Assembly: GCA_965248925.1 (NCBI GenBank)
Contig: CBDFLE010000006.1
Location: 1,344,001 to 1,408,000, forward strand
DNA from: Candidatus Multivoradales bacterium
Lineage (GTDB): Bacteria > Acidobacteriota > Thermoanaerobaculia > Multivoradales > J023
Reading direction: 5' to 3'
Length of the DNA: 64,000 bases
The notes under the pieces were generated by a model. The model was given only the letters and a program-made list of their open reading frames with translations, was not told the origin of the DNA and made no database searches. Shown one piece after another: positions 1 through 32,400 of this stretch. A program made the position numbers and the translations under genes. Position 1 is the stretch's first letter. The number at the start of each line of letters is the position of its first letter.

Positions 1-51
1 ACCTAGCCCTCTTCGCGAAAGGCTGAGCGGCGAGGTGCCAACCGTTTCGCA

Positions 52-77
52 GAAAGCCCGGCTGATGCCGGGCTTTC
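52..77. terminator. Rho-independent terminator-like hairpin (possibly bidirectional)
   Basis: Perfect 11-bp stem GAAAGCCCGGC-TGAT-GCCGGGCTTTC; lies between the window start and the convergent XRE gene. Confidence 0.65.
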
Positions 78-262
78 GTGCATCTGGGCTCAAGTAGCGG
101 CGTAGGATCGCCGGGTACGTGCGTCTCGGATGAGTCCATCGGCCTGCTGCGGAGGTGCCAGAAGGCGTTTCGCCGCAAGCCAACTGAAATCAGCGAGCTG
201 TATTGATCGAGCCCGGTGAGAGCCGGGTTTCCGTCTATATTGGATCAAGAGGCGCCGAAAGC

Positions 263-616
263 CTAGCGGGTCTTGGCTTCCCTAATGAGCGAGTCGACGA
301 CGTAGAGGATACGGTCCCGGTCGCTCGTCGCCAAAGCGTCGAGAGTCATCCACCGTTCGACCATTTCGCTTTGGGTGAGCAGATTGGGAACCTCCTGCTC
401 ACCCACCAAATAGTCGAGCGTCACACCAAAGACTTCGGCCATCTTCTGAGCCACCTTGATCGACGGCATCACCTCGCCTCGCTCGTAGCGCCCGATGACG
501 ACGCCCGAAGTGCCAAGCTTTTTGCCAAGCTCGTCTTGCTTCCAGCTGCGAGTCTTGCGTAGCTCAAGAACTCGCTTGCCGAACCGTGTCTTGATCGTGC
601 CGCTTTCTTGGCTCAT
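263..616 (-). CDS. XRE/HTH_3 family transcriptional regulator
   Basis: LRKTRSWKQDELGKKLGTSGVVIGRYERGEVMPS...FGVTLDYLVG is a cro/C1-type HTH. Confidence 0.9.
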   Translation of the reverse strand: MSQESGTIKTRFGKRVLELRKTRSWKQDELGKKLGTSGVVIGRYERGEVMPSIKVAQKMAEVFGVTLDYLVGEQEVPNLLTQSEMVERWMTLDALATSDRDRILYVVDSLIREAKTR

Positions 617-727
617 AGAACCTTCCAGTCCTTTCTTGTACGCCTTTTTCCGTCCTGAGTTAAATAATCATGACGAAAGAGTCCATTGACAGTTTACGGC
701 GGCCTGCACCGCCCGGAGGAGGAACCC

Positions 728-940
728 ATGATCGACCGCACTTTGACCGTCTCTAGCCTCTACCCAGCCTCATCATTCCCTTCGGGCTATCGCTCACTAC
801 GCCAGTCTCGGCGACAGCATCCGGTGCCCTTCCTGCGGCTCTCAGGCCGGTGGCTGGAATCGGCGGGATTTGAGATTGGCTCGAAGGTGCGGGTGGTGGT
901 CGAGTCGGATCGCCTGGTGGTGGAGCCAGCGGATGTCTGA
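728..940 (+). CDS. symE: SymE-family (AbrB-fold) toxin-like protein
   Basis: PFLRLSGRWLESAGFEIGSKVRVVV matches the SymE core motif; ATG 728 follows a GGAGG SD. Confidence 0.8.
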   Translation: MIDRTLTVSSLYPASSFPSGYRSLRQSRRQHPVPFLRLSGRWLESAGFEIGSKVRVVVESDRLVVEPADV

Positions 941-1154
941 ACAGAAACTTCGGGTGTCGGGCTTCTATCGCCCCGGTTGGCCGGCGCCGCCGGCTCTGGA
1001 GCGGCCATCGCCGCTCCTGCTGCTGGTGGGCTCGTGGCTGGCAGAGGCGGGATTTGCTCCTGGGGATGAGGTGCGGGTGTCGGGGCAAGATGGGCGGCTG
1101 CAGGTGGTGCGGCGAGAGCTCGACGATGAGACGCCGGCTTGGGGAGGGCGGTAG
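933..1154 (+). CDS. Second SymE-family protein
   Basis: PLLLLVGSWLAEAGFAPGDEVRVSGQDGRLQV; ATG 933 overlaps the end of the previous gene. Confidence 0.7.
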   Translation: MSEQKLRVSGFYRPGWPAPPALERPSPLLLLVGSWLAEAGFAPGDEVRVSGQDGRLQVVRRELDDETPAWGGR

Positions 1155-1156
1155 GG

Positions 1157-4100
1157 GTGAGCAGGATTCCGGAAGCGGAGGTGGAGCGGCTAAAGCGAGA
1201 GGTGTCGGTAGAGCGCCTGGCCCAGGCTCGGGGGGTGAAGCTGAAGCGGCACGGGGCAGATCTACTCGGCCTCTGTCCGTTTCACGACGACAAGGAGCCC
1301 TCTCTCGTCATTTCACCGAAGAAGAACCTGTGGCACTGCCTGGGCGCCTGCCAGGCGGGTGGCTCGGTGATCGATTGGGTGATGCGAGATCGCGGGGTGT
1401 CGTTTCGCCACGCGGTCGAGCTGCTGCGCTCGGATCTGCCGGCGGCGGCGGTCACTGAGGCGCGGCCTTCGGCGCCGGCTCTGCCTTCGCCGGTGGTGGC
1501 GGACGTCGAGGACGCGGAGCTGCTCGGCCAGGTCGTCGGCTACTACCACGAGGCTTTGAAGGAGAGCCCGGAGGCGCTGGCTTATCTGGAGAGCAGAGGG
1601 CTGAAGCACCCGGAGATGATCGAGCATTTCAGGCTTGGCTTCGCCAACCGGACGCTGGGCTATCGACTGCCATCGAAGCAGCTGAAGGCGGGTAAGGAGA
1701 TGCGGGGTCGATTGCAGAAGCTCGGCGTGCTGCGCAAGTCGGGTCATGAGCACTTCAACGGCTCGATCGTCTTTCCGGTCTTCAAGGGTGGCCGGGTGGT
1801 GGAGATCTACGGGCGCAAGATCACACTGAATCTTCGCAAGGGGACGCCCTTGCATCTCTATCTGCCGGGTCCACATCGAGGGATCTTTAATGCGGAAGCT
1901 CTGGTGGCCTCGACCGAGATCATCCTCTGCGAGTCGCTGATCGACGCTCTGACTTTCTGGTGTGCGGGTTACCGTAACGTCACCAGCGCCTACGGCATCC
2001 AGGGTTTCACCGCGGAGATGCTGGCAGCCTTCGGTGGCCACGGAGTCGAGCGGGTGCTGATCGCCTACGACCGTGACGATGCCGGCGAGAAGGCCGCCGG
2101 GAAGCTGGCCGAGAAGCTGGTGGGTGCCGGGATCGACTGCTACCGAATCCAATTTCCGCGTGGCATGGACGCCAACGAGTACGCGCTGAAGGTGACCCCG
2201 GCGGCGAAGTCGCTGGGGGTGGTGATCCGCAAAGCACAGTGGCTCGGCAAAGGCAAGCCGCCGGGCGTGAAACCGGGGTTTGGGCCAACAGCTGGCCTAA
2301 TCGCGCCAACGGTACGGCCAAACACAGCCGCAGAGGCGGTAATGGCTCCACCAACAGAGCAGCTGACATCATCGAATACCGCCGGAGAGGCGGTATTGGC
2401 ACTGCCCGCCCCGGCCGAAGCCTCCCCACTGCCCGCACCGCCTCCGCCAGATATGCCGGCTGAGGTGCGCGACCAGGAGGTGGTCTTGTCGCTCGGCGAT
2501 CGCCGCTACCGCATTCGCGGTCTGCCGAAGAATCTGGCCTACGACGTGCTCAAGGTCAACGTCCTGGCGTCGCGGGGCGACGCCTTCCACGTCGACACTT
2601 TCGATCTCTACGCGGCGCGGCCGCGGGCGGTGTTTCAGCGGGCGGCAGCCGCTGAGCTGGGGGTCGAGGAGCAGGTGGTCAAGAAGGATCTGGGCAAGGT
2701 GCTGCTGAAGCTCGAGGAGCTGCAGGACGAGCAGATCCGCTCAGCACTCGAGCCGCAGTCGACGGCGGTGGAGCTGTCAGAGGGAGAGAAGGAAGCGGCG
2801 CTTGAGCTGCTGCGCTCACCAGATCTCTTGGTGCGCATCCTCGCGGACTTCGAGCGCTGCGGGGTGGTGGGCGAGGAAACCAACAAGCTCATGGGCTATA
2901 TGGCGGCCACCTCGCGCTTTCTGGATCGGCCTTTGGCGGTGGTGGTGCAGTCGAGCTCGGCGGCCGGCAAGTCGGCGCTGATGGATGCGGTTCTGTCGCT
3001 GATGCCGGGTGAGGAGCAAGTGAAGTACTCGGCGATGACCGGGCAATCGCTGTTCTACATGGGCGAGACGAACTTGCAGCACAAGATTCTGGCGATCGTC
3101 GAGGAGGAAGGCGCCGAGCGGGCTAGCTACGCTTTGAAGCTGCTCCAATCGGAAGGCGAGCTGACGATTGCCTCAACCGGCAAGGACGCTTCAACGGGCA
3201 AGCTGGTGACGCACGAGTACCACGTCGAAGGGCCGGTGATGATCTTCTTGACGACCACGGCAATCGACATCGATGAAGAACTGCTGAATCGGTGTCTGGT
3301 GCTGTCGGTAGACGAGGCGCGGGAGCAGACTCGGGCGATTCACCGGCTGCAGCGAGAGCGGCGAACGCTCCAGGGGCTGTTGTCGCGCACCCGACGCGAC
3401 GGGGTGATGGCATTGCACCAGAACGCGCAGCGGCTGCTGCGGCCGCTGGCGGTGGTCAATCCCTTCGCTCCCGAGCTGACCTTTCTCGATACGCAGATCA
3501 GAACCCGTCGAGACCACGAGAAGTACCTGACCCTGATCGACGTGATTGCTCTCTTGCATCAGTACCAGCGGGAGGTGAAGCGGGCGGTGGTCGACGGGCG
3601 AGAGGTGGAATACGTGGAGGTGGTGGCCACGGACATCGGGACAGCCAACCGGCTAGCGCACGAGGTATTGGGGAGATCGCTCGACGAGCTGCCGCCGCAG
3701 ACGCGGCGCCTGCTGGGGCTGATCGACGAGATGGTCAGCGAAGCCTGTGAGGCGCTGGCGATGGATCGGCCGGACTACCGTTTCAGCCGGCGGGCGGTGC
3801 GTGAGCACACCGACTGGGGTGACACACAGCTGCGGCTGCACCTGGCGCGGCTGGTGTCGATGGAGTATTTGCTGGTGCATCAAGGAGGGCGAGGCCAGAG
3901 CTTCGTCTACGAGCTGGTGATCGAGATGAGTGGCGAGGAAGACCGCCCGCAGCTGCCCGGCTTGATCGAAGTGGAGGCACTCAAATCTGCGGGTACGACG
4001 AAAAGAACGCGGGGTCTGGAAGCAACCTCGCGGGGTCAAGGGGGTGAGAACGCGGGGCCAACGCGGCCCCAACGCGGGGGGGTTGCGGGGAAGTCGCGGG

Positions 4101-4249
4101 GTGCAGTTTCCCAAGCAGAATCAAAGACTTCGGCCGGAAATCGTGGAGTTTCTGCAAAAAACGCATATAAGGGGGAGCGAGAAAATGGCCCGTCATGTCG
4201 TAAACCGGGAAGTCGTACCGGCAGCTCGGCGGCGGCCGAGGGGGCCTGA
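1157..4249 (+). CDS. DNA primase-helicase fusion (zf-CHC2 + Toprim + P-loop AAA+ ATPase + C-terminal wHTH-like region)
   Basis: CPFHDDKEPS..WHCLGAC zinc finger; Toprim ESLIDA and YDRD; Walker A SSSAAGKS, Walker B ILAIVEEE, ELLNRC Arg-finger-like motif; probable GTG start 1157. Confidence 0.88.
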   Translation: MSRIPEAEVERLKREVSVERLAQARGVKLKRHGADLLGLCPFHDDKEPSLVISPKKNLWHCLGACQAGGSVIDWVMRDRGVSFRHAVELLRSDLPAAAVTEARPSAPALPSPVVADVEDAELLGQVVGYYHEALKESPEALAYLESRGLKHPEMIEHFRLGFANRTLGYRLPSKQLKAGKEMRGRLQKLGVLRKSGHEHFNGSIVFPVFKGGRVVEIYGRKITLNLRKGTPLHLYLPGPHRGIFNAEALVASTEIILCESLIDALTFWCAGYRNVTSAYGIQGFTAEMLAAFGGHGVERVLIAYDRDDAGEKAAGKLAEKLVGAGIDCYRIQFPRGMDANEYALKVTPAAKSLGVVIRKAQWLGKGKPPGVKPGFGPTAGLIAPTVRPNTAAEAVMAPPTEQLTSSNTAGEAVLALPAPAEASPLPAPPPPDMPAEVRDQEVVLSLGDRRYRIRGLPKNLAYDVLKVNVLASRGDAFHVDTFDLYAARPRAVFQRAAAAELGVEEQVVKKDLGKVLLKLEELQDEQIRSALEPQSTAVELSEGEKEAALELLRSPDLLVRILADFERCGVVGEETNKLMGYMAATSRFLDRPLAVVVQSSSAAGKSALMDAVLSLMPGEEQVKYSAMTGQSLFYMGETNLQHKILAIVEEEGAERASYALKLLQSEGELTIASTGKDASTGKLVTHEYHVEGPVMIFLTTTAIDIDEELLNRCLVLSVDEAREQTRAIHRLQRERRTLQGLLSRTRRDGVMALHQNAQRLLRPLAVVNPFAPELTFLDTQIRTRRDHEKYLTLIDVIALLHQYQREVKRAVVDGREVEYVEVVATDIGTANRLAHEVLGRSLDELPPQTRRLLGLIDEMVSEACEALAMDRPDYRFSRRAVREHTDWGDTQLRLHLARLVSMEYLLVHQGGRGQSFVYELVIEMSGEEDRPQLPGLIEVEALKSAGTTKRTRGLEATSRGQGGENAGPTRPQRGGVAGKSRGAVSQAESKTSAGNRGVSAKNAYKGERENGPSCRKPGSRTGSSAAAEGA
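4008..4101 (+). repeat. Helically phased (C/T)GCGGGG repeats, iteron-like
   Basis: Copies start at 4008, 4029, 4051, 4062 (partial), 4073, 4084 and 4095, giving an 11-bp period. Confidence 0.65.
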
Positions 4250-5322
4250 TGCCGCGCCGTGGCGAGCGCAAGATCCGCCTCTTGCCGGGCAATCCAACCG
4301 ACCCTCGGGGTTTCGCGGTGATGGCGGGTCAGTACCTGGAGTGGATGGCGATCAAGAACTACTCCCCACGAACCGTTGAGAACCGGCATCTATACCTCTC
4401 GTTTCTCATCGCATGGTGTGAAGAGCGTGGAGTGTCGCGGCCGTCGGACGTGACCAAGCCGATTTTGGAACGCTACGCCAGGTGGCTCTACCACTACCGC
4501 AAGCCCGAGGATGGGCGGCCGCTGTCTTTCCGGGCTCAGCACTCGCGGCTGGTGCCGGTAAGGGCCTTCTTCAAATGGGCGGCTCGGGCCAACCACCTGC
4601 TCTACAACCCGGCCTCGGAGCTGGAGCTACCGAAGCTGGAGCACCGGCTGCCGGCGGCGGTGCTGACCGCCTCTGAAGCCGACCAGGTGCTCAACCAGCC
4701 CGACACCACGGAGCCGCTCGGGATGCGCGACCGAACAATCCTTGAAGTCTTCTACTCCACGGGCATGCGCCGGGCTGAGCTGATCGGCCTCGGCCGTTAC
4801 GATCTCGACATCGAGCGCGGGACGGTGATGGTGCGCCAGGGCAAGGGGCGGAAAGACTGGATGATCCCGATCGGCGAGCGGGCGTTGGCCTGGATCGATC
4901 GCTACGTCACTGCGGTACGGCCGTCGCTGGTGGTCGAGCCGGACGGCGGGCCGCTCTTTCTCACCAACCAGGGGACGCCGTTTGCGCCGTCGCGAATGAC
5001 TCAGCTGGTGCGCGGCTACGTGCTCGCCGCCGATCTCGGCAAGTCGGGCGCTTGCCATCTCTTCCGCCACACGATGGCGACGCTGATGCTCGAAGGCGGC
5101 GCGGATATCCGCTTCATTCAGCAGATGCTCGGCCATGCCAAGCTGGAGACAACGCAGATCTACACTCAGGTATCGATCCGCAAACTGAAGTCGATCCACT
5201 CGGCAACCCATCCAGGGGCGAAGCTGGGGCGGCGGGTGGCACCGCCGACAGAAGAAGACGGCAGCGATGAAGTGACCGCCGAGGACTTACTCGATGTAGT
5301 CGAGACCGAGGCGGAGGACTGA
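4249..5322 (+). CDS. XerC/XerD-like site-specific tyrosine recombinase
   Basis: SAM-like N-terminus; catalytic R (TGMRRAEL), K (GKG), H-x-x-R (HLFRH), LGH and Y (TQIYT) intact; start overlaps the primase stop. Confidence 0.93.
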   Translation: MPRRGERKIRLLPGNPTDPRGFAVMAGQYLEWMAIKNYSPRTVENRHLYLSFLIAWCEERGVSRPSDVTKPILERYARWLYHYRKPEDGRPLSFRAQHSRLVPVRAFFKWAARANHLLYNPASELELPKLEHRLPAAVLTASEADQVLNQPDTTEPLGMRDRTILEVFYSTGMRRAELIGLGRYDLDIERGTVMVRQGKGRKDWMIPIGERALAWIDRYVTAVRPSLVVEPDGGPLFLTNQGTPFAPSRMTQLVRGYVLAADLGKSGACHLFRHTMATLMLEGGADIRFIQQMLGHAKLETTQIYTQVSIRKLKSIHSATHPGAKLGRRVAPPTEEDGSDEVTAEDLLDVVETEAED

Positions 5323-5867
5323 CCCCCGCCCGCCACCCGAAGCGGTCCGGGTCTGCGCGTCCCGCGCTGCGGCCGGCTGCGCCGTCCTCCGCTCGCGGGC
5401 CACGCAGCCCTCGGCGGTGTTTGTTTTGTCACCCCTGCCCGCCCCGGCCCGAGCATCTGCGATCCACCACCTGAGCCCTCCGATCACCGGCCCGGCGCGG
5501 GGCTTCAAGTAGTCCAAGAGAAGACTCTTCGAAAGCTCACCCCAAGCTCCGCCGGGGCGAGCACGTTGGTGGCCGTCGAAGGTCAGCGGCTTCGGAAGCA
5601 CGCCCCGCTCTTGGCCTCCTTGCCGAGATCCACCGACTTGCACTGCGACGGCTCGGCCCGGCCCCGTCCGCCCCCTCAAGGGGGCTCCCCATCCTCCTCC
5701 CAAGACCCGCCCTGCGTCGTGGCCTCCGTACCCTGCGCGCGGCGCCCTGCGGTCGCCGTGCTCGGCTCCGGCCCCGCCGCCACCACGCCCCCAACGTGCA
5801 GATTGGTTTGGCGGCTGCGCCGCCGGCACCAAACTGCCGGAAAGACCCGCGCTCGCTCCGACGACCA

Positions 5868-5926
5868 GCCCGACGAAAACGACCTAAGAAAACACCCACT
5901 GCCCGAAGAAAGCGGCCTAAGAAAAC
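5868..5926 (+). repeat. 26-bp imperfect direct repeat, 33-bp period
   Basis: GCCCGACGAAAACGACCTAAGAAAAC (5868-5893) vs GCCCGAAGAAAGCGGCCTAAGAAAAC (5901-5926), 23/26 identical. Confidence 0.7.
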
Positions 5927-6007
5927 CGCATCTCGCCTCCGCACCAACCACCCTTCCTCCTTTAGCCGCTGTCTTCGAGCGCCACCCGCGGCGTAGAATG
6001 GCCCGGC

Positions 6008-7087
6008 ATGAGGCAGGCAGCTAAAGGAAGAAGCACTTGGACGATGGCGCTCGGGCTGGTCGTCGCGCTCCTGGCGGTGACGATGCCGGCAACAGCGATC
6101 GCGCCGATCTCCGAGTCGAGCTACGCCGAAACTCGCCTCTGGACCTTCGAGCACCAAGACCCCGCCGGCAGTAGGGCCGAGCGAGGCTTAAGTAGAACAG
6201 GCATAGAGGGTTACCAGCTCTCAAGCTGGAAACCGCGTCGGGCTGTCCCCTTCACCCGAGGGGGTCAGCAGGTGGCGTTGCACAACTACTTTCCCTTTGG
6301 TCAAGAGGCGACCAGCGCGGAGGCTGACGAGATTCAGCTGAAGTTCACCGGGCATGAGCGGGACAAGACCGGGACCGGCAGCCGCTCCGAGCTGGACTAC
6401 ATGCACGCTCGGCATTGCAGCCCGGTGCTGGGGCGGTTCTTGAGTGTCGATCCGGCGAAGTCCGCCAAGCCCAGCGCGCCGGGAAGCTGGAACCGCTATT
6501 CCTATGCGGGAAACAACCCGATCAACGAGATCGACCCCAATGGGCGAGAAAGCCGTGCGGCGATGGCTCTCGAACAAGATATACAGCGCTTGATGCGGGG
6601 CGAGATCACCCAGGAGCAGTACATTGAGAACATCAATGCTCGGGGAATGGGAGCACTGTTTGCTGCCAGCCTTCTCTCGCCAGTCGACGAGACGACTCTT
6701 GTTGTCGCTGTTACTCGAAAAGCACTTCCTAGTGTTGGGTCAAAGCTGTCTGCTGTCTTTGCTCGACTTGGTAAGGTCTTTCAACGGGGATCGCGCGGAG
6801 GAGCAAGGGGGAGAGGTGCCCTCTCGAAACTAAAGATAGACCCCCAAACAGTACTGTCTGGCGGCCGAGGCGGAGGTAAGGTGAAGTCTCTTATTGGGCC
6901 TCCGAACGCTGCCGTTCGCGGTGGTGGACAACGGGTTTTCGTGACCAACGATAAGGGGCAAGTCATTCTCGACATCACGAAGAATCGAGTAAAGCCGGTG
7001 ACTCCAGGACAGGGTTTCGGGCCGAAGAGGGCCCCAACGAAAGAGGAGCTGGGCATCTTGCAGCAAATGCTGGGAAGTGGGTCATGA
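6008..7087 (+). CDS. Short Rhs-core polymorphic toxin with signal-peptide-like N-terminus and C-terminal toxin domain
   Basis: YFPFG, KFTGHERD, LDYMHAR, GRFLSVDP and NRYSYAGNNPINEIDPNG form the Rhs-associated core; variable C-terminus follows; no YD-repeat shell. Confidence 0.85.
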   Translation: MRQAAKGRSTWTMALGLVVALLAVTMPATAIAPISESSYAETRLWTFEHQDPAGSRAERGLSRTGIEGYQLSSWKPRRAVPFTRGGQQVALHNYFPFGQEATSAEADEIQLKFTGHERDKTGTGSRSELDYMHARHCSPVLGRFLSVDPAKSAKPSAPGSWNRYSYAGNNPINEIDPNGRESRAAMALEQDIQRLMRGEITQEQYIENINARGMGALFAASLLSPVDETTLVVAVTRKALPSVGSKLSAVFARLGKVFQRGSRGGARGRGALSKLKIDPQTVLSGGRGGGKVKSLIGPPNAAVRGGGQRVFVTNDKGQVILDITKNRVKPVTPGQGFGPKRAPTKEELGILQQMLGSGS

Positions 7088-7557
7088 CAGTTGCTTCCGT
7101 GTTGCTGAACTTCAGGCACGCGCTGATTGTTCTAGTGCCTTCGGTAGAGCGCGCAGGCATTCCCTGGAAGCGCCCAGACGCATACGATGAGTGGGACGCC
7201 ATCGCTTCGACACTCTTCGACGAGCTAGTCGTGAAGGTACTCCGGTGGTCGTTACCCCACGACAAACAAGAAGAATTCCGCATGTCCCCTTACGATTTGG
7301 TACTTGCAAGTTACACAGACCACAGCACCTTGGAGGTGACTCATCCATGCTTACGATCAGGCCGCTGGCTGTTTCATGCATTCGGAACGATGAGCGAGCC
7401 CTTCGACACCGTTGAGGTGCGCGAAGTATCTGCGAGTGGTCTGCCCCTTGGCGAGAACCTCGCGACCTGTCCGGTGACTGGTGCCAGCTTTTGTCTCAGG
7501 CTCCGCCGAGGGCTCGAGGATTCAAGGGTTTTGGATGAGGTAGTGATGTTCAACTGA
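7084..7557 (+). CDS. Putative cognate immunity protein
   Basis: 157 aa with ATGA overlap on the toxin stop; position typical of Rhs immunity genes. Confidence 0.7.
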   Translation: MTVASVLLNFRHALIVLVPSVERAGIPWKRPDAYDEWDAIASTLFDELVVKVLRWSLPHDKQEEFRMSPYDLVLASYTDHSTLEVTHPCLRSGRWLFHAFGTMSEPFDTVEVREVSASGLPLGENLATCPVTGASFCLRLRRGLEDSRVLDEVVMFN

Positions 7558-7560
7558 TAA

Positions 7561-7821
7561 CATCATGGAGCAAGGGGGACAGCGGCTAGAGCTAGGGTTC
7601 GCACTGCGCCACAAGATCTCTCAGAGAAGCTAGCGCTCGATGAAGCGGGAGCTGGAGCGGGCTGCCGGATCATGCAAGGGAAGATCAGAGATCCGAGGAT
7701 CCCGGAAAACATGTAGGCGAAGATGGAACATGTCCTCAAGAATCCAGACGGAACCCAGACGGTCATCCACTACTGGAAGAACTTGGAAACGTGCGTTCGC
7801 CAAGGCTTTAAGTTCAAATGA
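7561..7821 (+). pseudogene. Orphan toxin C-terminal domain with internal TAG
   Basis: Frame reads GARG...APQDLSEKLALDEAGAGAGCRIMQGKIRDPRIPENM*AKMEHVLKNPDGTQTVIHYWKNLETCVRQGFKFK*; no start at its 5' end; stop overlaps the next ATG. Confidence 0.65.
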
Positions 7822-8201
7822 AGGCAGTGAACCTCGAGCTTGTGGCGGCCAAGGCGATGCTTGGGTTGTTGCTGCCGGAGGATCTTCAGGGCGCTGCCGT
7901 GGATGCACTGGAAGAGGGTTGCGATTCGCCCTCACTGAGGATCCTCGCAGGACTGACCAAGGCGGAGGTCGGCGAAGCTCGCCAGCTCTTTGATCGACTT
8001 CTCGCTGAACTTCACGTACCAAAGACCAGTCGGAGGGGAGCCGTGGAACGGCTTGCGAGAGAGAGCGCAAAGGAAATCCTGAGCAGGAAGATTTGGCTCT
8101 CCTCAAATAGGAGTGGGTGGATTTCGCCACACTTGCTGCCGGCCGCCCATAGACGGGCGAGGCCGGCCGGCAGCAAGCATAGCGAAATGATGAGGCTGTA
8201 A
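7818..8201 (+). CDS. Putative immunity protein of the orphan toxin (3' end probably disrupted)
   Basis: ATGA coupling to the orphan toxin stop; helical N-terminal part (DSPSLRILAGL); ORF ends in the probable ISL3 terminus. Confidence 0.55.
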   Translation: MKAVNLELVAAKAMLGLLLPEDLQGAAVDALEEGCDSPSLRILAGLTKAEVGEARQLFDRLLAELHVPKTSRRGAVERLARESAKEILSRKIWLSSNRSGWISPHLLPAAHRRARPAGSKHSEMMRL

Positions 8202-8420
8202 GTAGTTGCCTGCACCGACGGAATCCGACCACCGATTCCGATTGAAAGTGACCAGTGATTCCAACGGAATCTGACCATCGATTCCGATCGAAAGTGACCA
8301 CTTTTCCGGGTCGATCGGAATGGGTGGTCAGATTGGATCGGAATCCTGGCCACGGCGGAGTTCGACGGTAGCGCGCTCCTCACAATTGGGGTATTCCAGC
8401 CTCCTTGAAAGGAGGATTGG

Positions 8421-9995
8421 ATGCCGAGAGTGAGGACATCGATGCGCAAGATACGCGAGGTACTGAGACTGAAATGGCAGCATGGCCTGTCGCACCGCCA
8501 GATCGGACGGTCGGTTCGGCTGGGCCACGGGACGGTGTGCAGCTACCTGCTGCGAGCCAAGGTTGAAGGCCTGAGCTGGGAGCAAGTAGCAGCTTTGAGC
8601 GACGCTGAGCTGGAGCAACGCCTGTACCCTCGGCCGCAGCCGCTTCGGAGGGGTGGTCAGCGAGCCTTGCCCGACTGGACCAAGGTGCATGGCGAGCTGA
8701 AGAAGAAGGGCGTAACCCTGTCGCTGCTGTGGCAAGAGTACCGGGAGGACCATCCCGACGGCTACGGTCTCAGCCGCTTCTGTCAGCTGTACCGGATCTG
8801 GGAAGGGCGCCTGGATGTGTGCCTGCGCCAAGCCTACCGGGCGGGCGAGAAGCTGTTCGTCGACTACGCCGGACAGACCGTGAGGGTGATCGACCCGGCG
8901 ACTGGCAAAGCGCGCGAAGCGCAGATCTTCGTGGCGGTGCTGGGGGCGAGCAATTACACCTATGCCGAAGCAACGTGGAGCCAGGGCCTGGAGGACTGGA
9001 TCGGCTCTCATGTGCGGACCTTCGCGGCTCTGGGCGGGGTGAGCGAGCTGGTGGTGCCGGACAATCTGAAGAGCGGCGTGACCAGCCCGTGCCGCTACGA
9101 GCCGGAGATCAATCGCACCTACGCGGAGTTGGCCGAGCACTACGGCGTGGCGGTGGTGCCGGCGCGGGTGAGGAAGCCCCAAGACAAGGCGAAGGTCGAA
9201 AACGGTGTATTGCAAGTGGAGCGCTGGATTCTGGCCCGGCTGCGTAACCAGCAGTTCTTCAGCCTGCGAGAGCTCAACGAGAGCATCGCGAAGCTTCTGG
9301 TCGAGCTTAACGACCGTCCGCTGAAGGTGTTGGGCGTCTCGCGCCGAGCGCTGTTCGAGCAGGTCGATCGTCCTGCTCTGGGTGCTTTGCCGCTCCAGCC
9401 CTACGAGCTTGCCGAATGGAAGAAGGTACGCGTTGCCCCGGACTACCACGTCGAGTTCGAGGGCCACTATTACAGTGTGCCGTACCAGCTGATCAAGAAG
9501 CAGCTCGATCTGCGGGCGACGGCGCAACTGGTGGAGGTGCTCGATCGCGGCAAGCGTGTGGCTGCTCATCGTCGCAATCGGTGTCGGGGTCGGCACACGA
9601 CCCAGAGCGAGCACATGCCCAAAGCGCACCAGGCGTACCTGGAGTGGACACCGACACGGCTGATCAGCTGGGCGGCGAAAACAGGCCAGGCGACGGCCGA
9701 ACTGGTGGAGACCATCATGCTTAACCGCTCCCATCCTCAGCACGGCTTTCGCTCGTGTCTGGGGCTGATGCGCCTGGGCAAGACCTATGGTGCCAATCGT
9801 TTGGAGGCTGCGTGCCGCCGCGCGCTCGCCATTCACGGCCTGTCCTACAAGAGCGTGAAGTCGATCCTGAAGAGCGGCCTGGACCAGCAAGCAACGCCCG
9901 AGCCCACCGAAGTGACGGCGCCGATCGAGCACCGCAACGTCCGCGGCGCCAGCTACTACAGTGCCGCGCGCCGCGAGGAGACGCCGCCATGCTGA
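8421..9995 (+). CDS. istA: IS21 transposase IstA
   Basis: N-terminal HTH; DDE motifs FVDYAG, VPDNLK and KAKVENGV. Confidence 0.95.
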   Translation: MPRVRTSMRKIREVLRLKWQHGLSHRQIGRSVRLGHGTVCSYLLRAKVEGLSWEQVAALSDAELEQRLYPRPQPLRRGGQRALPDWTKVHGELKKKGVTLSLLWQEYREDHPDGYGLSRFCQLYRIWEGRLDVCLRQAYRAGEKLFVDYAGQTVRVIDPATGKAREAQIFVAVLGASNYTYAEATWSQGLEDWIGSHVRTFAALGGVSELVVPDNLKSGVTSPCRYEPEINRTYAELAEHYGVAVVPARVRKPQDKAKVENGVLQVERWILARLRNQQFFSLRELNESIAKLLVELNDRPLKVLGVSRRALFEQVDRPALGALPLQPYELAEWKKVRVAPDYHVEFEGHYYSVPYQLIKKQLDLRATAQLVEVLDRGKRVAAHRRNRCRGRHTTQSEHMPKAHQAYLEWTPTRLISWAAKTGQATAELVETIMLNRSHPQHGFRSCLGLMRLGKTYGANRLEAACRRALAIHGLSYKSVKSILKSGLDQQATPEPTEVTAPIEHRNVRGASYYSAARREETPPC

Positions 9996-10753
9996 GGCAC
10001 GCGACGCTCGATCAACTCGCCGCGCTCAAGCTCCACGGTATGGCCAAAGCCTTTGAGGAGCAGCTGTTGATGGTCGATGTCTCAGAGCTCTCCTTCGAAG
10101 AGCGCCTCGGGCTGCTGGTCGAGCGCGAAGCGACCGAGCGATCCAGCCGCCGCTTGATAGCGCGGTTGCGAAAAGCCAAGCTGCGCGAGCAGGCGGCCAT
10201 CGAAGACATCGACTGGCGAGCCAAGAGGGGCCTGGACAAAGGCCAGATCCTGCGCCTGGCCTCGTGCCAGTGGATCGCCGAGCATCTCAACGTGCTGATC
10301 ACCGGCAAGGCCGGGGTGGGCAAGACCTTTCTCGCCTGCGCCTTCGCGCACAAGGCATGTCGGGAGGGTTACACCGCTTTGTACCTGCGGGTGCCGAGGC
10401 TGTTTCGCCAGCTCGCCATCGCGCGGGGTGATGGTAGCTACGAGAAGCTGCTCAAGAGCTATGCTCGCACAGACCTGCTCATCCTCGACGACTGGGGGCT
10501 GGCGCCGATCGGGGCCAGCGAGCGGCGCGACCTGCTCGAGATTCTTGAGGACCGCTACGGCAACCGCTCCACGCTGGTGACCTCCCAGCTACCGGTTGAG
10601 AGCTGGTACGAGGTCATCGGCGATCCGACCTTGGCCGACGCCATCCTCGATCGCATTGTCCACGGCGCCTACAAGCTCGCGGTGGACGGTGACTCCATGC
10701 GGGCGAAGAGAGCCGGCGGTATTCGCAAGGCCGCCCAGCGAGAGGCAAGGTGA
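9989..10753 (+). CDS. istB: IS21 helper ATPase IstB
   Basis: GKAGVGKT Walker A, LILDDWG Walker B, ADAILDRIVH; ATG at 9989. Confidence 0.95.
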   Translation: MLRHATLDQLAALKLHGMAKAFEEQLLMVDVSELSFEERLGLLVEREATERSSRRLIARLRKAKLREQAAIEDIDWRAKRGLDKGQILRLASCQWIAEHLNVLITGKAGVGKTFLACAFAHKACREGYTALYLRVPRLFRQLAIARGDGSYEKLLKSYARTDLLILDDWGLAPIGASERRDLLEILEDRYGNRSTLVTSQLPVESWYEVIGDPTLADAILDRIVHGAYKLAVDGDSMRAKRAGGIRKAAQREAR

Positions 10754-26005: not shown

Positions 26006-26458
26006 ATGCGCAGCACCAACCCACTCACCGCACCCAGCCGGCCAGCGGCGACAAGACCGCGGCCGGTGGTGTTGGTGGTCGACGACGACCGCGAGATGCG
26101 CGACTACTTGCGCCGCTGCCTGAAGCCGCTCGAGGATCGTCTGGGGACCATCCTTGAAGCAGCGGACGGTCAGGCCGCCTTCGAACTTGCCATCAGCGAG
26201 CAAGTCGACCTGGTGATCACCGACGTGGTGATGCCGCGGCTCGATGGCCTGGCCTTGCTGCGACGCCTTGGCGCCCGACGCTCGCCACCGAAGGTGCTGG
26301 TGGTGTCCGGCGAACCCGGACCTGAGCAGGCCCGCGCCGCTGGGGTCGAGAGCTGGCTGGCGAGGCCCTTTGACCGCCGCACTCTGTGTCGGCAGGTCAG
26401 CATTTTTCTTGATTCTCGGGAGGACGGTAGGAAACGCGAAGAGCAACAAGGGGAATGA
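26006..26458 (+). CDS. Single-domain response regulator (REC)
   Basis: VLVVDDD, ITDVVMP and VVSG motifs; conserved KP reads RP; stop overlaps the giant gene start. Confidence 0.85.
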   Translation: MRSTNPLTAPSRPAATRPRPVVLVVDDDREMRDYLRRCLKPLEDRLGTILEAADGQAAFELAISEQVDLVITDVVMPRLDGLALLRRLGARRSPPKVLVVSGEPGPEQARAAGVESWLARPFDRRTLCRQVSIFLDSREDGRKREEQQGE

Positions 26459-29400
26459 GCATGTCGCAACGGGTACAGCTGACACGGCAATCTCGGATCG
26501 AGAACCGGTTCGGGAGACTAGGACTCTGGCTCTGGGCGGCTTTGGCCGTGCTACTCGCCCTGCCGACCCACGCGGCAGCCTTGACCCTCGCCACCCCTTA
26601 CAACAGCAACAATGGCCAGCGTGGCGCCATGTTCGACGTCGCCGCGACCAATACGGTCACCATTCGTACTTTCGATGCCAATCTCTACGTCGGCACCACC
26701 GCCAACTACGAGATCTACTACCGCGCCGGCAGCCATGTCGGCAACGAAACCAACGCCGCCGCCTGGACTCTGATCGGCACAACGACCGGACTGACGTCGC
26801 TGGGAAGCGACCTTCCGACACCCATTCCAATCCCGGTCGACATCACCATTCCAGCCGGCCAAACCTACGCTTTCTACGTCACCAACGACTTCGGTGGCGG
26901 CACCTCCTACACCGATGGCACGGCGGTCGGCAATTTCCTCGCTGGCGACGCCAACCTGACGGTCTTTGAAGGGGTCGGCAAGTCCTACCCTTTCGGCCTG
27001 ACTTTCAGTGTGCGGAATTTCAACGGCACCCTGCACTATGACCTCGGCGGCGGAGCGGTGTCGGTAGTGCCCGCGCCAACCACTGTGCCGGCACCCGGCG
27101 GCACAGTGACTTACAAAGTCACGGTGACCAACTTCGAAACCGGAACGCTGTCGCTGACCGGCCTCAGCGACAGCTTGCTCGGCTCCCTCGACGGCGTCGG
27201 CAGCTGTGCCGTGCCGCAGACTCTCGCCCCTAGCACCTCCTACAGCTGCAGCTTCACCGCCTCGGTCAACGGCGCGGCCGGGTCGTCAGTCACCAGGACG
27301 GTGACCGCCATTGGCACCAGCGGCGGTAATAACTTCTCCGATTCTGGCGTTGCTACGGTCGATATTGTCGGTGGCTTGGTGGGCATTGCCCTGACCAAGA
27401 CCGCCAGTCCGACCAGCATCACCGAGCCCTCTGGAACGGTGACCTTCACCGTGCGGATCGACAACACCGGCACCCAGAGCGCCGACATCACTGCGTTGAG
27501 CGACGATATTCACGGCAATCTCAATGGCCAAGGCGACTGCAACGTGCCCCAGACCCTGGCGATCGGCGGTTTCTACCAATGCAGTTTCACCGCCACCGTG
27601 ACTGGCGGCGGCGGCGGATCTGAAACCGACACGGTGACCGCGAGCGGCGTGTCGGGAGGATTGAGCGTCACCGGCCAAGACTCCGCGACGGTGACCTTCA
27701 CCGACTTGCCTTCCTCGATCATCGTCACCAAGACGGCAACACCGAGCAGCGTCGCCGAACCGAGCGGCGCGGTATCGTTCACTGTCCGGATCGACAACAC
27801 CAGCGCTGTCGACGTGGTGACGATCACCGCCCTGACGGACGACATCCACGGCAACCTCGCGGGCCAAGGCAGCTGCGCCATACCGCAGGTCATCGCCGTC
27901 GGCGCCTTCTACCAATGTGCCTTTCCAGCGACAGTCAGCGGCAACGCCGGAACCAGCGAGACCGACACCGTCACTGCCTCGGGATCGGATGACGACGGCA
28001 ACCTGGTCTCGGCGCAAGGTTCGGCAACGGTCACCATCACCGATGTGCTGCCCGCCGCATTGGTGACCAAGACCGCCAGCCCGACCTCCGTCGATGAGCC
28101 CGGCGGCAACATCACCTTCACCGTCCGGGTCGACAACACCGGCAGCGCCGAGTCGCTATCGCTCAGCGACCTCAACGACGATATTCACGGCGACCTCAAT
28201 GGCCAGGGCGACTGCGCCGTGCCGCAGACAGTCGCCGCCGGCGGCTTCTACCAATGCAGCTTCACCGCCGCCGTCAATGGCAACGCCGGCGACAGTGAAA
28301 CCGACACCGTCACTGCCACACTGGCCGACGACGATAGCAACACGATCACTCCCAGCGACTCGGCGACCGTCACAATCACCGATGTGGCCTCCTCGATCAG
28401 CGTCACCAAGACCGCCTCACCGACCTCCGTTGCCGAACCGGGTGGCACCGTCACTTTCACCGTCCGAGTCGACAACACCAGCACCGTCGACAGCGTGGCC
28501 ATCTCCAGCCTGTCCGACGACATCCACGGCAACCTAGCCGGCCAAGGCGACTGCGCCGTGCCGCAGACTGTCGCCGCCGCCGGCTTCTACCAGTGCAGCT
28601 TCACCGCCGCCGTCAACGGCAACGCTGGCGACAGCGAGACCAACACCGTCACCGCGTCGGGCACTGACGATGATTCCAATCCGGTCTCGGCACAGGACTC
28701 GGCGACGGTCACCGTCACCGATGTAATGCCCACCGCATCGGTGACCAAGACCGCCAGCCCGAACACCGTCGACGAGCCCGGCGGCAATGTCACCTTCACC
28801 GTCCGCGTCGACAACACCGGCAGCGCGGAGTCGCTGGCACTCAGCGCCCTTGACGACGATATCCACGGCGACCTCAACGGCCAGGGCGATTGTGCCGTGC
28901 CGCAGACAGTCGCCGCCGGCGGCTTCTACCAATGCAGCTTCACCGCCGCCGTCAATGGCAACGCGGGCGATAGTGAAACCGACACCGTCACCGCCACGCT
29001 CTCCGACGACGACGGCAACTCCATCACTCCCAACGACTCGGCCACCGTCACCATTACCGGCACCGATTGGGGCGATGCCGCCGATCCGAGCTACCCGACC
29101 TTGCTGGCCAACGACGGCGCGCGCCACACCATCGTCGCCGGTTTCTTCCTCGGCGCTGGGATCGACGCCGAGGCCGACGGCCAGCCCGATGCCACCGCCA
29201 CCGGCGACGACACCGATGGCAATGACGACGAAGACGGCGTCGCCTTCGCGAGTGTTCTGGTACCAGGGATGTCGGTCGGGGTCGATATCATCGCTTCGGC
29301 AGCCGGGCTGCTCGATGCTTGGATCGACTTCAACGGCAATGGCTCCTGGGCCGACACCGGCGAGCAGGTCTTCACCGGCCAGGCACTCACCAGCGGCCTC

Positions 29401-32400
29401 AACAACCTGTCGATCAGCGTGCCGGCCACCGCGACCACCGGTGCCACAGGGGCCCGCTTCCGCCTGAGTTCGGCCGGCACCCCCGACCCGACCGGCCTGG
29501 CGGCCGACGGCGAGGTCGAGGACTATCAGGTGGCGATCGAAGCGCCTTCGATCAGCGTCACCAAGACCGCCAGCCCGGCCTCGCTCAACGAGCCCGGCGG
29601 CAGCGTCACCTTCACCGTCAGGGTCGACAACACCGGCACCGCCACCGTTGCTCTAAGCAGCTTGGTGGACGATGTCCACGGCGACCTCAGCGGCCAAGGA
29701 GACTGCGCCATGCCGCAGACAATCGCCACCGGTGGCTTCTACCAATGCAGCTTCGCCACCACGGTCAGCGGCAACGCCGGCTTCTCGGAAACCGACACGG
29801 TCACCACCACGGGCATCTCGGTCGCTCTGCCAGTCTCGGCCCAGGACTCGGAAACCGTCACCATCAACGACGTCGCGCCCACAGCAGCGGTGACCAAGAC
29901 CGCCAGCCCGACCTCTATCGACGAGCCCGGCGGTAACATCACCTTCACCGTCCGCGTCGACAACACCGGCAGCGCCGAGTCGCTGGCGCTCAGCGACCTT
30001 AACGACGATATCCACGGCGACCTCAATGGCCAGGGCGACTGCGCCGTGCCGCAGACAATCGCCGCCGGTGGCTTCTACCAATGCAGTTTCACCGCCGCCG
30101 TCAACGGCAACGCTGGCGACAGCGAGACCGACACTGTCACCGCCACCCTCGCCGACGACGATGGCAACGCCATCACTCCCAGCGACTCGGCCACCGTCTC
30201 CATCACCGATGTGGCCTCCTCGATCAGCGTCACCAAGACCGCCTCACCGACCTCCGTTGCCGAACCGGGTGGCACCATCACTTTCACCGTCCGAGTCGAC
30301 AACACCAGCACCATCGACAGCGTGACCATCTCCAGCCTGTCCGACGACATCCATGGCAACCTCGCCGGCCAAGGCGACTGCGCCGTGCCGCAGACCCTGG
30401 CCGCCGGCGGCTTCTACCAATGCAGCTTCACCGCCGCCGTCAACGGCAACGCTGGCGACAGCGAGACCGACACAGTGACCGCGTCGGGTACCGACGATGA
30501 TTCCAATCCGGTCTCGGCCCTGGGCTCGGCAACGGTCACCGTCACCGATGTAATGCCCACCGCATCGGTGACCAAGACCGCCAGCCCGAACACCGTCGAC
30601 GAGCCCGGCGGCAATGTCACCTTCACCGTCCGCGTCGACAACACCGGCAGCGCGGAGTCGCTGGCACTCAGCGCCCTTGACGACGATATCCACGGCGACC
30701 TCAACGGCCAGGGCGATTGTACCGTGCCGCAGACAGTCGCCGCCGGCGGTTTCTACCAATGCAGCTTCACCGCCGCCGTCAATGGCAACGCGGGCGATAG
30801 TGAAACCGACACCGTCACCGCCACGCTCTCCGACGACGACGGCAACTCCATCACTCCCAACGACTCGGCCACCGTCACCATTACCGGCACCGATTGGGGC
30901 GACGCGGCCGATCCGAGTTACCCGACCTTGCTGGCCAACGACGGCGCGCGCCACACCATCGTCGCCGGTTTCTTCCTCGGCGCTGGGGTCGACGCCGAGG
31001 CCGACGGCCAGCCCGATGCCACCGCCACCGGCGACGACACCGATAGCAATGACGACGAAGACGGCGTCGCCTTCGCGAGTGTTCTGGTACCAGGGATGTC
31101 GGTCGGGGTCGATATCACCGCTTCGGCAGCCGGACTGCTCGATGCCTGGGTTGACTTCAACGGCAACGGCTCCTGGACCGACGCCGGCGAGCAGGTCTTC
31201 TCCGGCCAGGCACTCACCAGCGGCCTCAACAGTCTGTCGATCAGCGTGCCGGCCACCGCGACCACCGGTGCTACAGGGGCCCGCTTCCGGCTGAGCTCGG
31301 CCGGCACTTCCGACCCGACCGGCCTAGCAGCCGACGGCGAGGTCGAGGACTATCAGGTGGTGATCGAAGCGCCTTCGATCAGCGTTACCAAGACCGCCAA
31401 CCCAACCTCGCTCAACGAGCCCGGCGGCAGCGTCACCTTCACCGTCCGCGTCGACAACACCGGCACCGCCAGCGTAGCGCTGAGCAGCCTGGTGGACGAT
31501 GTCCACGGCGACCTCAACGGCCAGGGCGACTGTGCCGTGCCGCAGACCCTCGCCACCGGTGGCTTCTACCAATGCAGCTTCGCCACGACGGTCAGCGGCA
31601 ACGCTGGCTTCTTGGAGACCGACACGGTCACTGCCACGGGCACCTCGGTCGGTCTAGCGGTCTCGGCACAGGACTCGGCAACGGTCAACATCACCGATGT
31701 GCTGCCCACCGCATCGGTGACCAAAACCGCCAGCCCGACCTCCGTCGATGAGCCCGGCGGCAACATCACCTTCACCGTTCGGGTCGACAACACCGGAAGC
31801 GCCGAGTCGCTGTCACTCTCAGCCCTTAACGACAATATCCACGGCGACCTCAACGGCCAGGGCGACTGTGCCCTGCCGCAGACAATCGCTGTCGGTGGCT
31901 TCTACCAGTGCAGCTTCACCGCCGCCGTCAACGGCAACGCCGGAGACTCGGAAACCGACACCGTCACCGCCATCTTGGCCGACGACGATGGCAACTCCAT
32001 CACTCCCAGCGACTCGGCCACCGTCACCATCACCGATGTGGTCTCCTCGATCACAGTCACCAAGACCGCCTCGCCAACCACTGTCGCCGAACCGGGTGGC
32101 ACCATCACCTTCACCATCCGAGTCGACAACACCAGCACGGTCGACAGTGTGACTATCTCCTCCCTCGCCGACGACATCCACGGCAACCTCGCGGGCCAAG
32201 GGGACTGCGCCGTGCCGCAGACCCTCGCCGCGGGCGCCTTCTACCAGTGCAGCTTCACCGCCGCAGTCAACGGCAACGCTGGCGACAGCGAGACCGACAC
32301 CGTCACCGCGTCGGGCACTGACGATGATTCCAATCCGGTCTCGGCACAGGACTCGGCGACGGTCACCGTCACCGATGTAATGCCCACCGCATCGGTGACC

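Follow-up and report, generated by a model that had tools for sequence, protein, structure and literature searches.

Organization of ORF 6008..7087

The stretch analysed here, called the window, comprises 64,000 nucleotides (nt) of a Candidatus Multivoradales bacterium (positions 1,344,001 to 1,408,000 of contig CBDFLE010000006.1, forward strand); coordinates refer to the window unless a contig is named. It contains a short gene, open reading frame (ORF) 6008..7087, in which a leader resembling a signal peptide is fused to the core of an Rhs toxin. The leader forms the right end of a repeated unit, called the element below, which encodes a tyrosine recombinase and a DNA primase. The ORF is a single open frame of 359 amino acids (aa) on the forward strand and reads, in order, as a signal-peptide-like start, 52 unrelated residues, an Rhs core and a toxin tip, with a candidate immunity gene overlapping its end (Table 1).

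The protein starts with MRQAAKGRSTWTMALGLVVALLAVTMPATA|IAP. The n-region (aa 1-12) has a net charge of +3, the best 12-residue hydrophobic window is MALGLVVALLAV (mean Kyte-Doolittle 2.89), and the small residues A-T-A stand at -3/-1 before I31. A basic n-region, an h-region of 7-15 residues and small residues at -3/-1 are the marks of a Sec (type I) signal peptide, and the leader, which has all three, is probably one; the call is heuristic, made from charge, Kyte-Doolittle values and the -3/-1 residues. Residues 31-82 do not resemble full-length Rhs proteins. Homology to Rhs starts at nt 6252, within codon 82 (...VPF|TRGGQQVALHNYFPFG). The Rhs_assc_core model TIGR03696 matches aa 94-179 (E 7.1e-18, 64.9 bits vs a cut-off of 32.5), and DPNG (aa 176-179, nt 6533-6544) terminates the core. 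The initial annotation of this DNA, made from the sequence alone, had described an Rhs core joined to a signal-peptide-like leader; its coordinates and its sequence are correct.

The YD-repeat shell of >1000 aa is absent. The core region has just 81 non-Rhs residues before it, which makes the ORF a tip rather than a full Rhs gene. The part of the tip that follows the core is 180 aa long. BLASTN matches of the tip to five other loci of the genome start at 6252 (or at 5554) and end at 6811-6813. The terminal toxin domain had no family match in Pfam or NCBIfam, nor did the candidate immunity protein, P0002, in Pfam, NCBIfam or PHROG. An AlphaFold2 model of the ORF built on a 50-sequence alignment had a mean pLDDT (predicted local distance difference test score) of 53.9, too poor for a fold search; an N-terminal helix, the helices at aa 180-211 (pLDDT 86-96) and a small C-terminal sheet-helix unit were modelled with confidence. 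The first part of the linker, 6545-6650 (aa 180-212, ESRAAMALEQDIQRLMRGEITQEQYIENINARG), gave a VbhA antitoxin-like Pfam match (E 0.039), which is sub-threshold and was not used.

The leader is the right end of a repeated recombinase-primase unit

The genome (8.0 Mb, 6 contigs) contains 85 Rhs core matches. When the whole genome was searched by tblastn with residues 1-92 of the leader, 12 copies were found, all 100% identical, a recurrence far beyond chance. Each of them continues in frame through the core into a tip, for a total length of 351-367 aa, and a further ORF of 78-175 aa begins -1 to +25 nt after each of the 12. According to their last 95 residues, the tips form 8 BLASTP classes. 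The initial annotation had asked whether the leader is conserved while fused to different toxins, and would have been contradicted by a leader that is unconserved or out of frame. The leader is neither, in this genome and in other genera (see below).

Each leader copy forms the right end of a unit of ~7.5 kb that reads tip, immunity gene, XRE gene, two SymE-like ORFs, DnaG-type primase gene, XerC-like recombinase gene, spacer, leader. The repeat corresponds to 1156..6252 and its copies are 91-97% identical (BLASTN). The leader belongs to a mobile element, as had been supposed. Units are found singly or in tandem behind full-length Rhs genes that bear a Sec signal. Contig C5 has eight of them behind one head gene, at spacings of 7.5-12.2 kb, the longer of which contain a copy of an insertion sequence (IS), and three units follow one head at C6:3.50 Mb. 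For the window, the head Rhs gene is a 1678-aa frame that ends at -523 and has its own, unrelated signal peptide. ORF 6008..7087 fits the layout of an orphan rhs-CT, namely a core fragment, a tip and an immunity-type ORF downstream of a related full-length Rhs gene. Unlike the classical orphans, all 12 copies have an in-frame ATG and a leader, and an identical junction.

The recombinase belongs to the XerC subfamily NF002331 (429 bits vs a cut-off of 371). It scores below the cut-offs of both chromosomal equivalogs (XerC, 220.8 vs 335; XerD, 215.1 vs 329.6) and is therefore not a housekeeping Xer protein. Compared with its relatives, it has a ratio of nonsynonymous to synonymous divergence (dN/dS) of 0.08-0.19. 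The primase also matches TIGR01391 dnaG (E 1.9e-44, below cut-off) and PHROG DNA primase families, and is presumably what replicates the element. Genes for packaging or conjugation did not appear in the unit.

The spacer that separates the recombinase gene from the leader presumably provides a promoter and the P-arm of attP. It contains two copies of the direct repeat GCCCGAnGAAAnCGnCCTAAGAAAAC (5868-5893 and 5901-5926). A 17-nt inverted repeat (5953-5969 and 6017-6033, 88% complementary) flanks the ATG at 6008 and pairs the CCTCCTTT stretch with AAAGGAAG, located before Met13; it may act as a translational control hairpin. Rfam gave no match on window 1-8300, and a promoter scan of 5300-7700 found no sigma-70 consensus.

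No match to the TssC/VipB sheath of the type VI secretion system (PF05943) turned up in this genome (completeness 96.9%), in a search that did not extend to PAAR and VgrG. The lack of a sheath gene, together with a signal peptide on the head protein itself, indicates that these Rhs proteins are probably Sec-dependent.

Table 1. Coordinates of the element and of the leader-tip fusion in the window
Feature	Position	Strand	Remarks
XRE-type helix-turn-helix regulator, 117 aa	263..616	-	Pfam HTH_3 E 6.7e-15; equivalent gene and position in L043
Two overlapping SymE/AbrB-like small ORFs	728..940, 933..1154	+	Pfam SymE_toxin E 1.4e-15 and 3.5e-8; pair before primase in L043
DnaG-type primase with C-terminal P-loop region, 1036 aa	1139..4249	+	Zn_ribbon_DnaG E 1e-20, Toprim_2 E 7e-18, DNAG_N
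XerC-like tyrosine recombinase, 357 aa	4249..5322	+	PF00589 E 3.7e-36; HLFRH and TQIYTQV motifs in translation
Non-coding spacer, 685 nt	5323..6007	+	between integrase and leader
Element-encoded leader	6008..6251	+	signal-peptide-like aa 1-30 and conserved SYAETRLW..IEGY (aa 38-69), up to the junction
Junction, proposed recombination core TCACCCGAGGGGG	6252..6264	+	first base common to full-length Rhs is 6252
Rhs core fragment of the putatively displaced tip, aa 82-179	6252..6544	+	TIGR03696; 95% over 202 nt to the upstream full-length Rhs
Linker / pre-toxin segment	6545..6802	+	common to other tips of the genome
Inner junction GCAAGGGGG, codons A266-R267-G268	6803..6811	+	tips sharing the linker diverge here
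Terminal toxin domain, ~90 aa	6812..7087	+	unique in genome; own BLASTP cluster
Candidate cognate immunity gene (P0002), 157 aa	7084..7557	+	start overlaps toxin stop (ATGA)

The junction lies at the same nucleotide in all copies

The initial annotation had placed the junction near 6230-6270, and alignment with the full-length Rhs genes located it at 6251/6252. The segment 6252-6400 has 30 matches in the genome; leader DNA (...gtcgggctgtcccct) stands before 12 of them and Rhs-shell DNA (...ggcacaccccggcaga) before the other 18. The switch from element to Rhs sequence occurs at the identical base in 12/12 leader copies, and the ten bases that follow are TCACCCGAGG in all of them. In contrast, in an element-free array of the same genome (C6:2444213-2458404), made of core-plus-tip fragments 1.3-2.6 kb apart, the six orphans have six different start points in the shell, from -1380 to -2419. 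Such scattered breakpoints are the expectation under homologous recombination.

Relatives of the leader share an in-frame 11-nt core

A leader search of 60 related genomes detected the leader in G016 (another genus of the same family, four tandem copies), G052 (another family of the same order) and G009, and more weakly in G020, G026 and G060 (E 0.003-0.007). These relatives are metagenome-assembled genomes of Thermoanaerobaculia / Acidobacteriota. No leader relative was present in viral contigs, and a word-index protein search with the leader returned only proteins of this genome, the relatives being reached by profile search. In G016, a 3741-aa Rhs protein (core E 3.5e-22) is followed by four primase-recombinase-leader units. 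The leader joins ~178 aa past the Rhs core, right before the toxin domain (...SPVPRG|toxin), so that the target position in Rhs differs from that of the window, which is before the core. The array of G052 terminates in a leader, a tip and a small ORF, with recO, glyQ and glyS immediately after them. The frame is open from the leader into the tip in all 12 copies here, in 4/4 copies of G016, in G052 and in a metagenome contig, L043, described below.

At the join, the head gene and the leaders of G016 have only GTCCCAAGGGG in common; this short core is identical in the head gene and the four leaders alike, and thus stands at both junctions. We compared 12 junctions of this VPRG type, taken from G016, G052, G009/L037 and six metagenome contigs. 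Ten read exactly GTCCCAAGGGG (11 nt, codons VPRG), and the other two have one and two of the 11 bases changed (GTCCCAAGGTG and TTCCCAAGGTG). For Pro and Arg, 12/12 use CCA and AGG, both rare codons, and divergence is total after the core. The junction of the window is positionally homologous to GTCCCAAGGGG; its core, CACCCGAGGGGG compared with CCCAAGGGGG, differs mainly by a short insertion. The DNA just before the core, the P-arm, is kept between genera; it reads GGGCTGTCCCCT in this genome, GGGCTGTTCCCCT in G016 and GGGCTATCCCCTT in members of the G052 group. Together, a core that is short, fixed and conserved as DNA, a conserved arm and a recombinase under selection form a signature of site-specific recombination, and the proposal of the initial annotation that the junction is the recombination site is borne out to that extent by the single nucleotide of the 12 copies and the 11-nt core of the relatives.

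A similar core was observed further downstream. Where tips with the linker motif diverge, 7/9 have the inner core [GC]CAA[AG]GGGG, and the tip at C5:922161 reads ...RGVPRG| at this inner junction and from there on matches P0027, a leader-toxin of the VPRG type that occurs elsewhere as a stand-alone protein. The presence of one kind of core at either boundary indicates that Rhs tips here are nested modules. Two decayed copies of the element, 82-85% identical, have stop codons in the leader (C4:259861-261200 and C6:3629356-3631400). In these, a VPRG-type or decayed leader, one ending with ...GYPLSPRG, is joined to mid-shell YD repeats, which indicates that target positions have shifted more than once.

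A profile built from four leaders retrieved 59 proteins among 1.84 billion representatives, 28 of them at E <= 1e-10; 54 of the 59 do not belong to this genome. An ETR motif is present in 48 of these 54. In 45 of the 48, a hydrophobic stretch averaging at least 2 on the Kyte-Doolittle scale is followed by an ASA-type site that lies a few residues upstream of the motif, and 44 have a [LV][VA][PA]RG-type junction ~45 aa later. The proteins are mostly 160-250 aa long with hypervariable C-termini (50 of them fall into 42 clusters). One C-terminus is a CdiA_C toxin domain (E 4e-13); one tip of the present genome has weak Ntox10 and EndoU matches, both under the Pfam cut-offs. The gene calls stored in databases start the leader ORFs at Met13. 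However, Met1 and the AAKGR n-region are kept in a relative of the G052 group (MTRAAKGR), which belongs to another family, and this conservation favours Met1.

The element appears to carry the tip at its left end

The order of genes in G016 is as follows: head with tip X; backbone E1, leader with X; E1, leader with tip Y and immunity Y; backbone E2, leader' with Y and immunity Y; E2, leader' with a six-residue stub. The two E1 units are 99.96% identical, and E1 and E2 85.7%. The sequence X-E1, X-E1, Y-E2, Y-E2 shows that the identity of a toxin follows that of the right-hand backbone rather than that of the left-hand one. In this genome, eight unit pairs have an integrase identity of at least 0.988; in 5/8 of them the left cargo is identical, and in 8/8 the right tips are at most 0.27 identical. 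Over all 66 unit pairs, integrase identity was not significantly correlated with left or right tip identity (Spearman rho 0.16 and -0.17, respectively); only near-identical pairs are informative on the cargo side.

The metagenome contig L043 (10,413 nt) has an exact terminal overlap of 127 nt, which makes it either circular or part of a tandem, with a unit length of 10,286 nt. It reads recombinase, spacer, leader and toxin, immunity gene, cargo, XRE gene, two SymE-like ORFs, primase, and is collinear with the window from the junction on. The leader heads the element's own tip in this contig, and two extra cargo ORFs of 380 and 241 aa lie on the minus strand between the immunity and XRE genes. 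Array order and the gene order of L043 together indicate that an element brings the tip at its left, and that its leader ends up on the displaced one. The mobile unit would then run from core to core, with tip and immunity gene at its left, and the leader would fuse to the tip that was previously resident. For the window, the toxin end of the head Rhs gene (-1148..-523) and the candidate immunity gene at -533..6 would have come with the element. The putatively displaced tip (6252-6811, 96.6% identical) is still present on two full-length Rhs genes, C5:984654 and C6:3495909.

These observations divide the initial annotation's idea of a captured tip reactivated by the element. A displaced tip does receive an in-frame start and a leader from the element; capture of that tip does not agree with the array order, according to which the element contributes a tip and immunity gene of its own from its left end and its leader lands on the tip that it displaces.

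A model for toxin swapping and its alternatives

We propose, with a probability of roughly two in three, that ORF 6008..7087 is the attR-side fusion of a toxin-swapping integrative element, a variant of Rhs C-terminal displacement. According to this model, which is built from sequence comparisons, the free element would be ~7.5 kb long, probably self-replicating, and would carry one continuous gene for leader, constant segment, core and toxin tip, followed by the immunity gene, the XRE gene, the two SymE-like ORFs, the primase gene and the XerC-like recombinase gene. We infer that free circles of this kind exist. The core would lie in frame inside the leader-toxin gene and would have its counterpart in a matching short sequence that chromosomal Rhs genes bear at a module boundary; recombination of these two sites would insert the element. 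Catalysis of this exchange by the element's own recombinase is a somewhat favoured assumption. The resident Rhs shell would acquire the tip and immunity gene of the element, while the old tip with its immunity gene would be shifted downstream and joined in frame to the leader. The leader would give this old tip a start and a Sec-type signal, and the spacer upstream would be its presumed promoter. With this start and signal and with translational coupling, the displaced tip and its immunity gene could still be expressed. Successive integrations would create the tandem arrays; each, if so, would put a new toxin on the Rhs shell, add the matching immunity gene and re-head the old pair, keeping the old immunity on. 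Whether this amounts to a general mode of in-frame, site-specific domain exchange by self-replicating elements, with attP in a leader-toxin gene and attB an ~11-nt core at Rhs module boundaries, is in our estimate evenly balanced.

Several observations weigh against this model, and some of them also favour classical displacement, in which a RecA crossover takes place anywhere in the rhs core, the element is passenger or vehicle, its integrase is inactive at the junction and the leader is accidental. This mechanism is the published one (PMC2935791, sections available), and element-free classical orphan arrays do exist in this genome. To the right of the junction, head and orphan have ~200 nt of 95% identical core in common, on which RecA-mediated exchange could act. 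Polymorphisms at +11 and +14 past the junction vary among leader copies, so that the exact crossover point cannot be fixed. The segment 5588..6262 is ~100% identical in the 12 copies, despite neighbouring integrase genes with a column identity of 0.66-0.83; such homogenization before the junction points to gene conversion, and hence to homologous processes that are also active. Gene conversion spreading from a recombination hot spot would explain it, but this is a guess. The Rhs genes C6:3495909 and C5:984654, which still carry the displaced tip, are 98.5% identical through most of the head gene and therefore do not represent a clean independent insertion, and tandem duplicates can also result from unequal crossing-over, so that duplicate phase alone is no proof of integration. 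No excision or circle joints were present in Logan contigs of four runs from one sample aligned to L047, where three joints (3200>4663, 9327>9447 and 10453>2108) fit paralogous arrays. No empty site was seen among the genomes compared; G033, a congener of G052, has recO with a different upstream synteny and no toxin locus, which precludes an empty-site comparison. Classical displacement is nevertheless quite improbable in our view: it would have to account for one junction nucleotide in 12/12 copies against six breakpoints in six classical orphans, for G016 head and leaders that share 11 nt alone, for a core kept with its rare codons in diverged elements (10/12 exact), and for a P-arm conserved between genera despite different target positions in Rhs.

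Another group of observations concerns the leader as a protein. Among the seven close leaders, dN/dS has a median of 0.85 (21 pairs), and it is 0.47-1.03 between lineages; synonymous divergence of the leader is at or below that of the recombinase in every pair compared. Near-neutral evolution with so little synonymous divergence suggests that part of the conservation may be at the DNA level, in an att arm, and it also speaks against the toxin-swapping model. In the AlphaFold model, moreover, neither the leader segment nor the shell-less core is structured. At the extreme, the leader ORF would be non-functional: a recombinase-binding arm of attP whose frame is incidental in GC-rich DNA, the displaced tips being silent. 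The contrast between a dN/dS of 0.6-1.0 for the leader and 0.08-0.19 for the integrase, the choice of Met13 by gene callers, the missing sigma-70 consensus upstream and the stops in the two decayed copies agree with this idea. We consider it improbable, as relatives with the ETR motif keep the hydrophobic core and cleavage motif in 45 of 48 cases, down to ~20-30% identity, and the junction in frame in 44; as the frame is open into the tip in every copy of this genome and of G016, in G052 and in L043; and as the stop is closely coupled with an immunity ORF in 12/12.

The main purpose of the fusion might be a small Sec-exported toxin, bacteriocin-like and working without an Rhs shell, close to the mini-toxin of the initial annotation. 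Most relatives are indeed stand-alone proteins of 160-250 aa with a signal peptide, a constant segment and a variable domain of ~100 aa, one of them with a CdiA_C toxin domain. Start codon and n-region are conserved between families, and Sec-dependent polymorphic toxins with short constant N-domains are known (PMC3482391, excerpts). This purpose is unlikely all the same, given that Sec export alone ends in the periplasm in a diderm cell, that constraint on the leader protein is weak at close range, and that the fusion contains a shell-less Rhs core, predicted to be unfolded. On export itself, the sequence features leave us evenly divided. The in-frame leader may serve the translation of the tip-immunity operon perhaps as much as toxin delivery; for the free element as for the displaced pair, this role is deduced from the ATGA-type coupling. 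Finally, full-length Rhs proteins of this genome also start with a signal peptide, and the short gene could have been an internal-deletion derivative that kept such a signal and the C-terminal core. This is refuted almost beyond doubt: the head N-terminus (MRIRPLTFILLGLCIALPLTAQ...) is unrelated to the leader, and tblastn with the leader detected the 12 and the two decayed element copies only, and no Rhs 5' end.

Comparison with known systems

Koskiniemi and colleagues reportedly described Rhs C-terminal displacement and orphan rhs-CT/immunity arrays in 2014. The arrays studied here are alike in that a full-length rhs gene is followed by core-plus-tip fragments with immunity genes, old tips being displaced and not deleted. 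In the available sections of Jackson et al. (2009; PMC2935791), C-terminal displacement is proposed to occur via circular intermediates and homologous recombination; the circular intermediate, which the present model has in common with theirs, is postulated, and no enzyme or vehicle is identified in these sections. The present arrays differ from Rhs displacement arrays by an identifiable vehicle, a unit that encodes a tyrosine recombinase and a primase of its own; by a fixed nucleotide, or 11-nt core, at the junction compared with variable core lengths; and by the start codon and predicted signal peptide that the displaced tip gains.

Recombinases of the Xer family have been linked to toxin-immunity arrays before, with site-specific acquisition suspected. 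According to the accessible parts of these reports, rAID-1 of Bacteroidales consists of XerD-associated, integron-like immunity arrays (Ross et al., bioRxiv 10.1101/471110), and XerC/D genes lie beside polyimmunity loci (Zhang et al., 2012; PMC3482391). These systems have a single recombinase, arrays of immunity genes and intergenic repeats, compared with one recombinase per unit here; an in-frame site in a toxin gene, Rhs grafting, a primase or a leader are not reported in the parts accessible. A 2026 preprint, as far as its accessible text goes, mentions that Xer-dependent recombination occurs beside poly-immunity arrays of Xenorhabdus and Photorhabdus. Integrase-like genes beside the Rhs loci of two bee-gut genera, Snodgrassella and Gilliamella, were suggested to aid in Rhs capture (Steele et al., 2017; PMC5727410); the passages available report co-occurrence alone, and do not describe a junction, an att site, a leader or an array logic.

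On the protein side, there is a parallel with Sec-dependent polymorphic toxins that have lineage-specific constant N-domains (MafB/MAFB-N, Microscilla-N and APD1/2 in the available text of Zhang et al., 2012; PMC3482391). These toxins as presented there also combine a signal peptide and short constant region with a hypervariable C-terminal toxin and a downstream immunity gene. Unlike in these toxins, the constant region of the leader family is ~50 aa long, ends in a recombination core conserved as DNA, and is encoded on a mobile unit next to a recombinase gene.

An integron has one platform integrase with attI and a promoter, and cassettes bounded by attC. Integrons and mobile integrative elements of the phage and satellite-type int-primase-XRE kind resemble the proposed system by circle insertion through a tyrosine recombinase and by ordered arrays in which the newest unit is nearest to the expressed position. 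The loci analysed here are not integrons, as a recombinase and a primase are encoded in every unit and the recombination core is inside coding sequence; attC-type structure and a single platform integrase are absent. In contrast with integrons, a site within coding sequence at which the frame is kept on both products would lead to the exchange of domains and not of genes.

No element that swaps Rhs tips through an in-frame att core in a leader-toxin gene was found in searches of full-text literature, to whose scope Martinkus et al. 2026 (Current Biology, Rhs poly-immunity arrays) does not belong. The system is best described as a mechanistically explicit variant of Rhs C-terminal displacement. 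If the model is true, the element is the long-postulated circular vehicle of this displacement and, in effect, an 'integron for protein domains'; it would give a mobile element a way to swap protein domains in frame while displaced immunity genes stay expressed. The locus and its relatives offer concrete candidates, namely a unit with a Xer-like recombinase, a primase, an 11-13-nt core and a predictable pair of products. With a candidate for each piece, the displacement hypothesis becomes testable. The locus also goes some way towards explaining why this Acidobacteriota genome is so extremely rich in Rhs (85 cores).

Neighbouring features

Among the Rhs genes of the genome are families with open frames of ~1700, 3600 and 5000 aa, and several tandem sets. 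Directly 3' of the immunity gene of the window lies an IS21-type IS (8207-10753), with an istA-like gene at 8421..9995 and an istB-like gene extending to 10753; its first 800 nt are found at >20 places in the genome at 98-99% identity, including inside the element copies of contig C5. Farther downstream, 26455-35997 contains an open frame of 3180 aa between ORFs of 1416 and 1486 aa.

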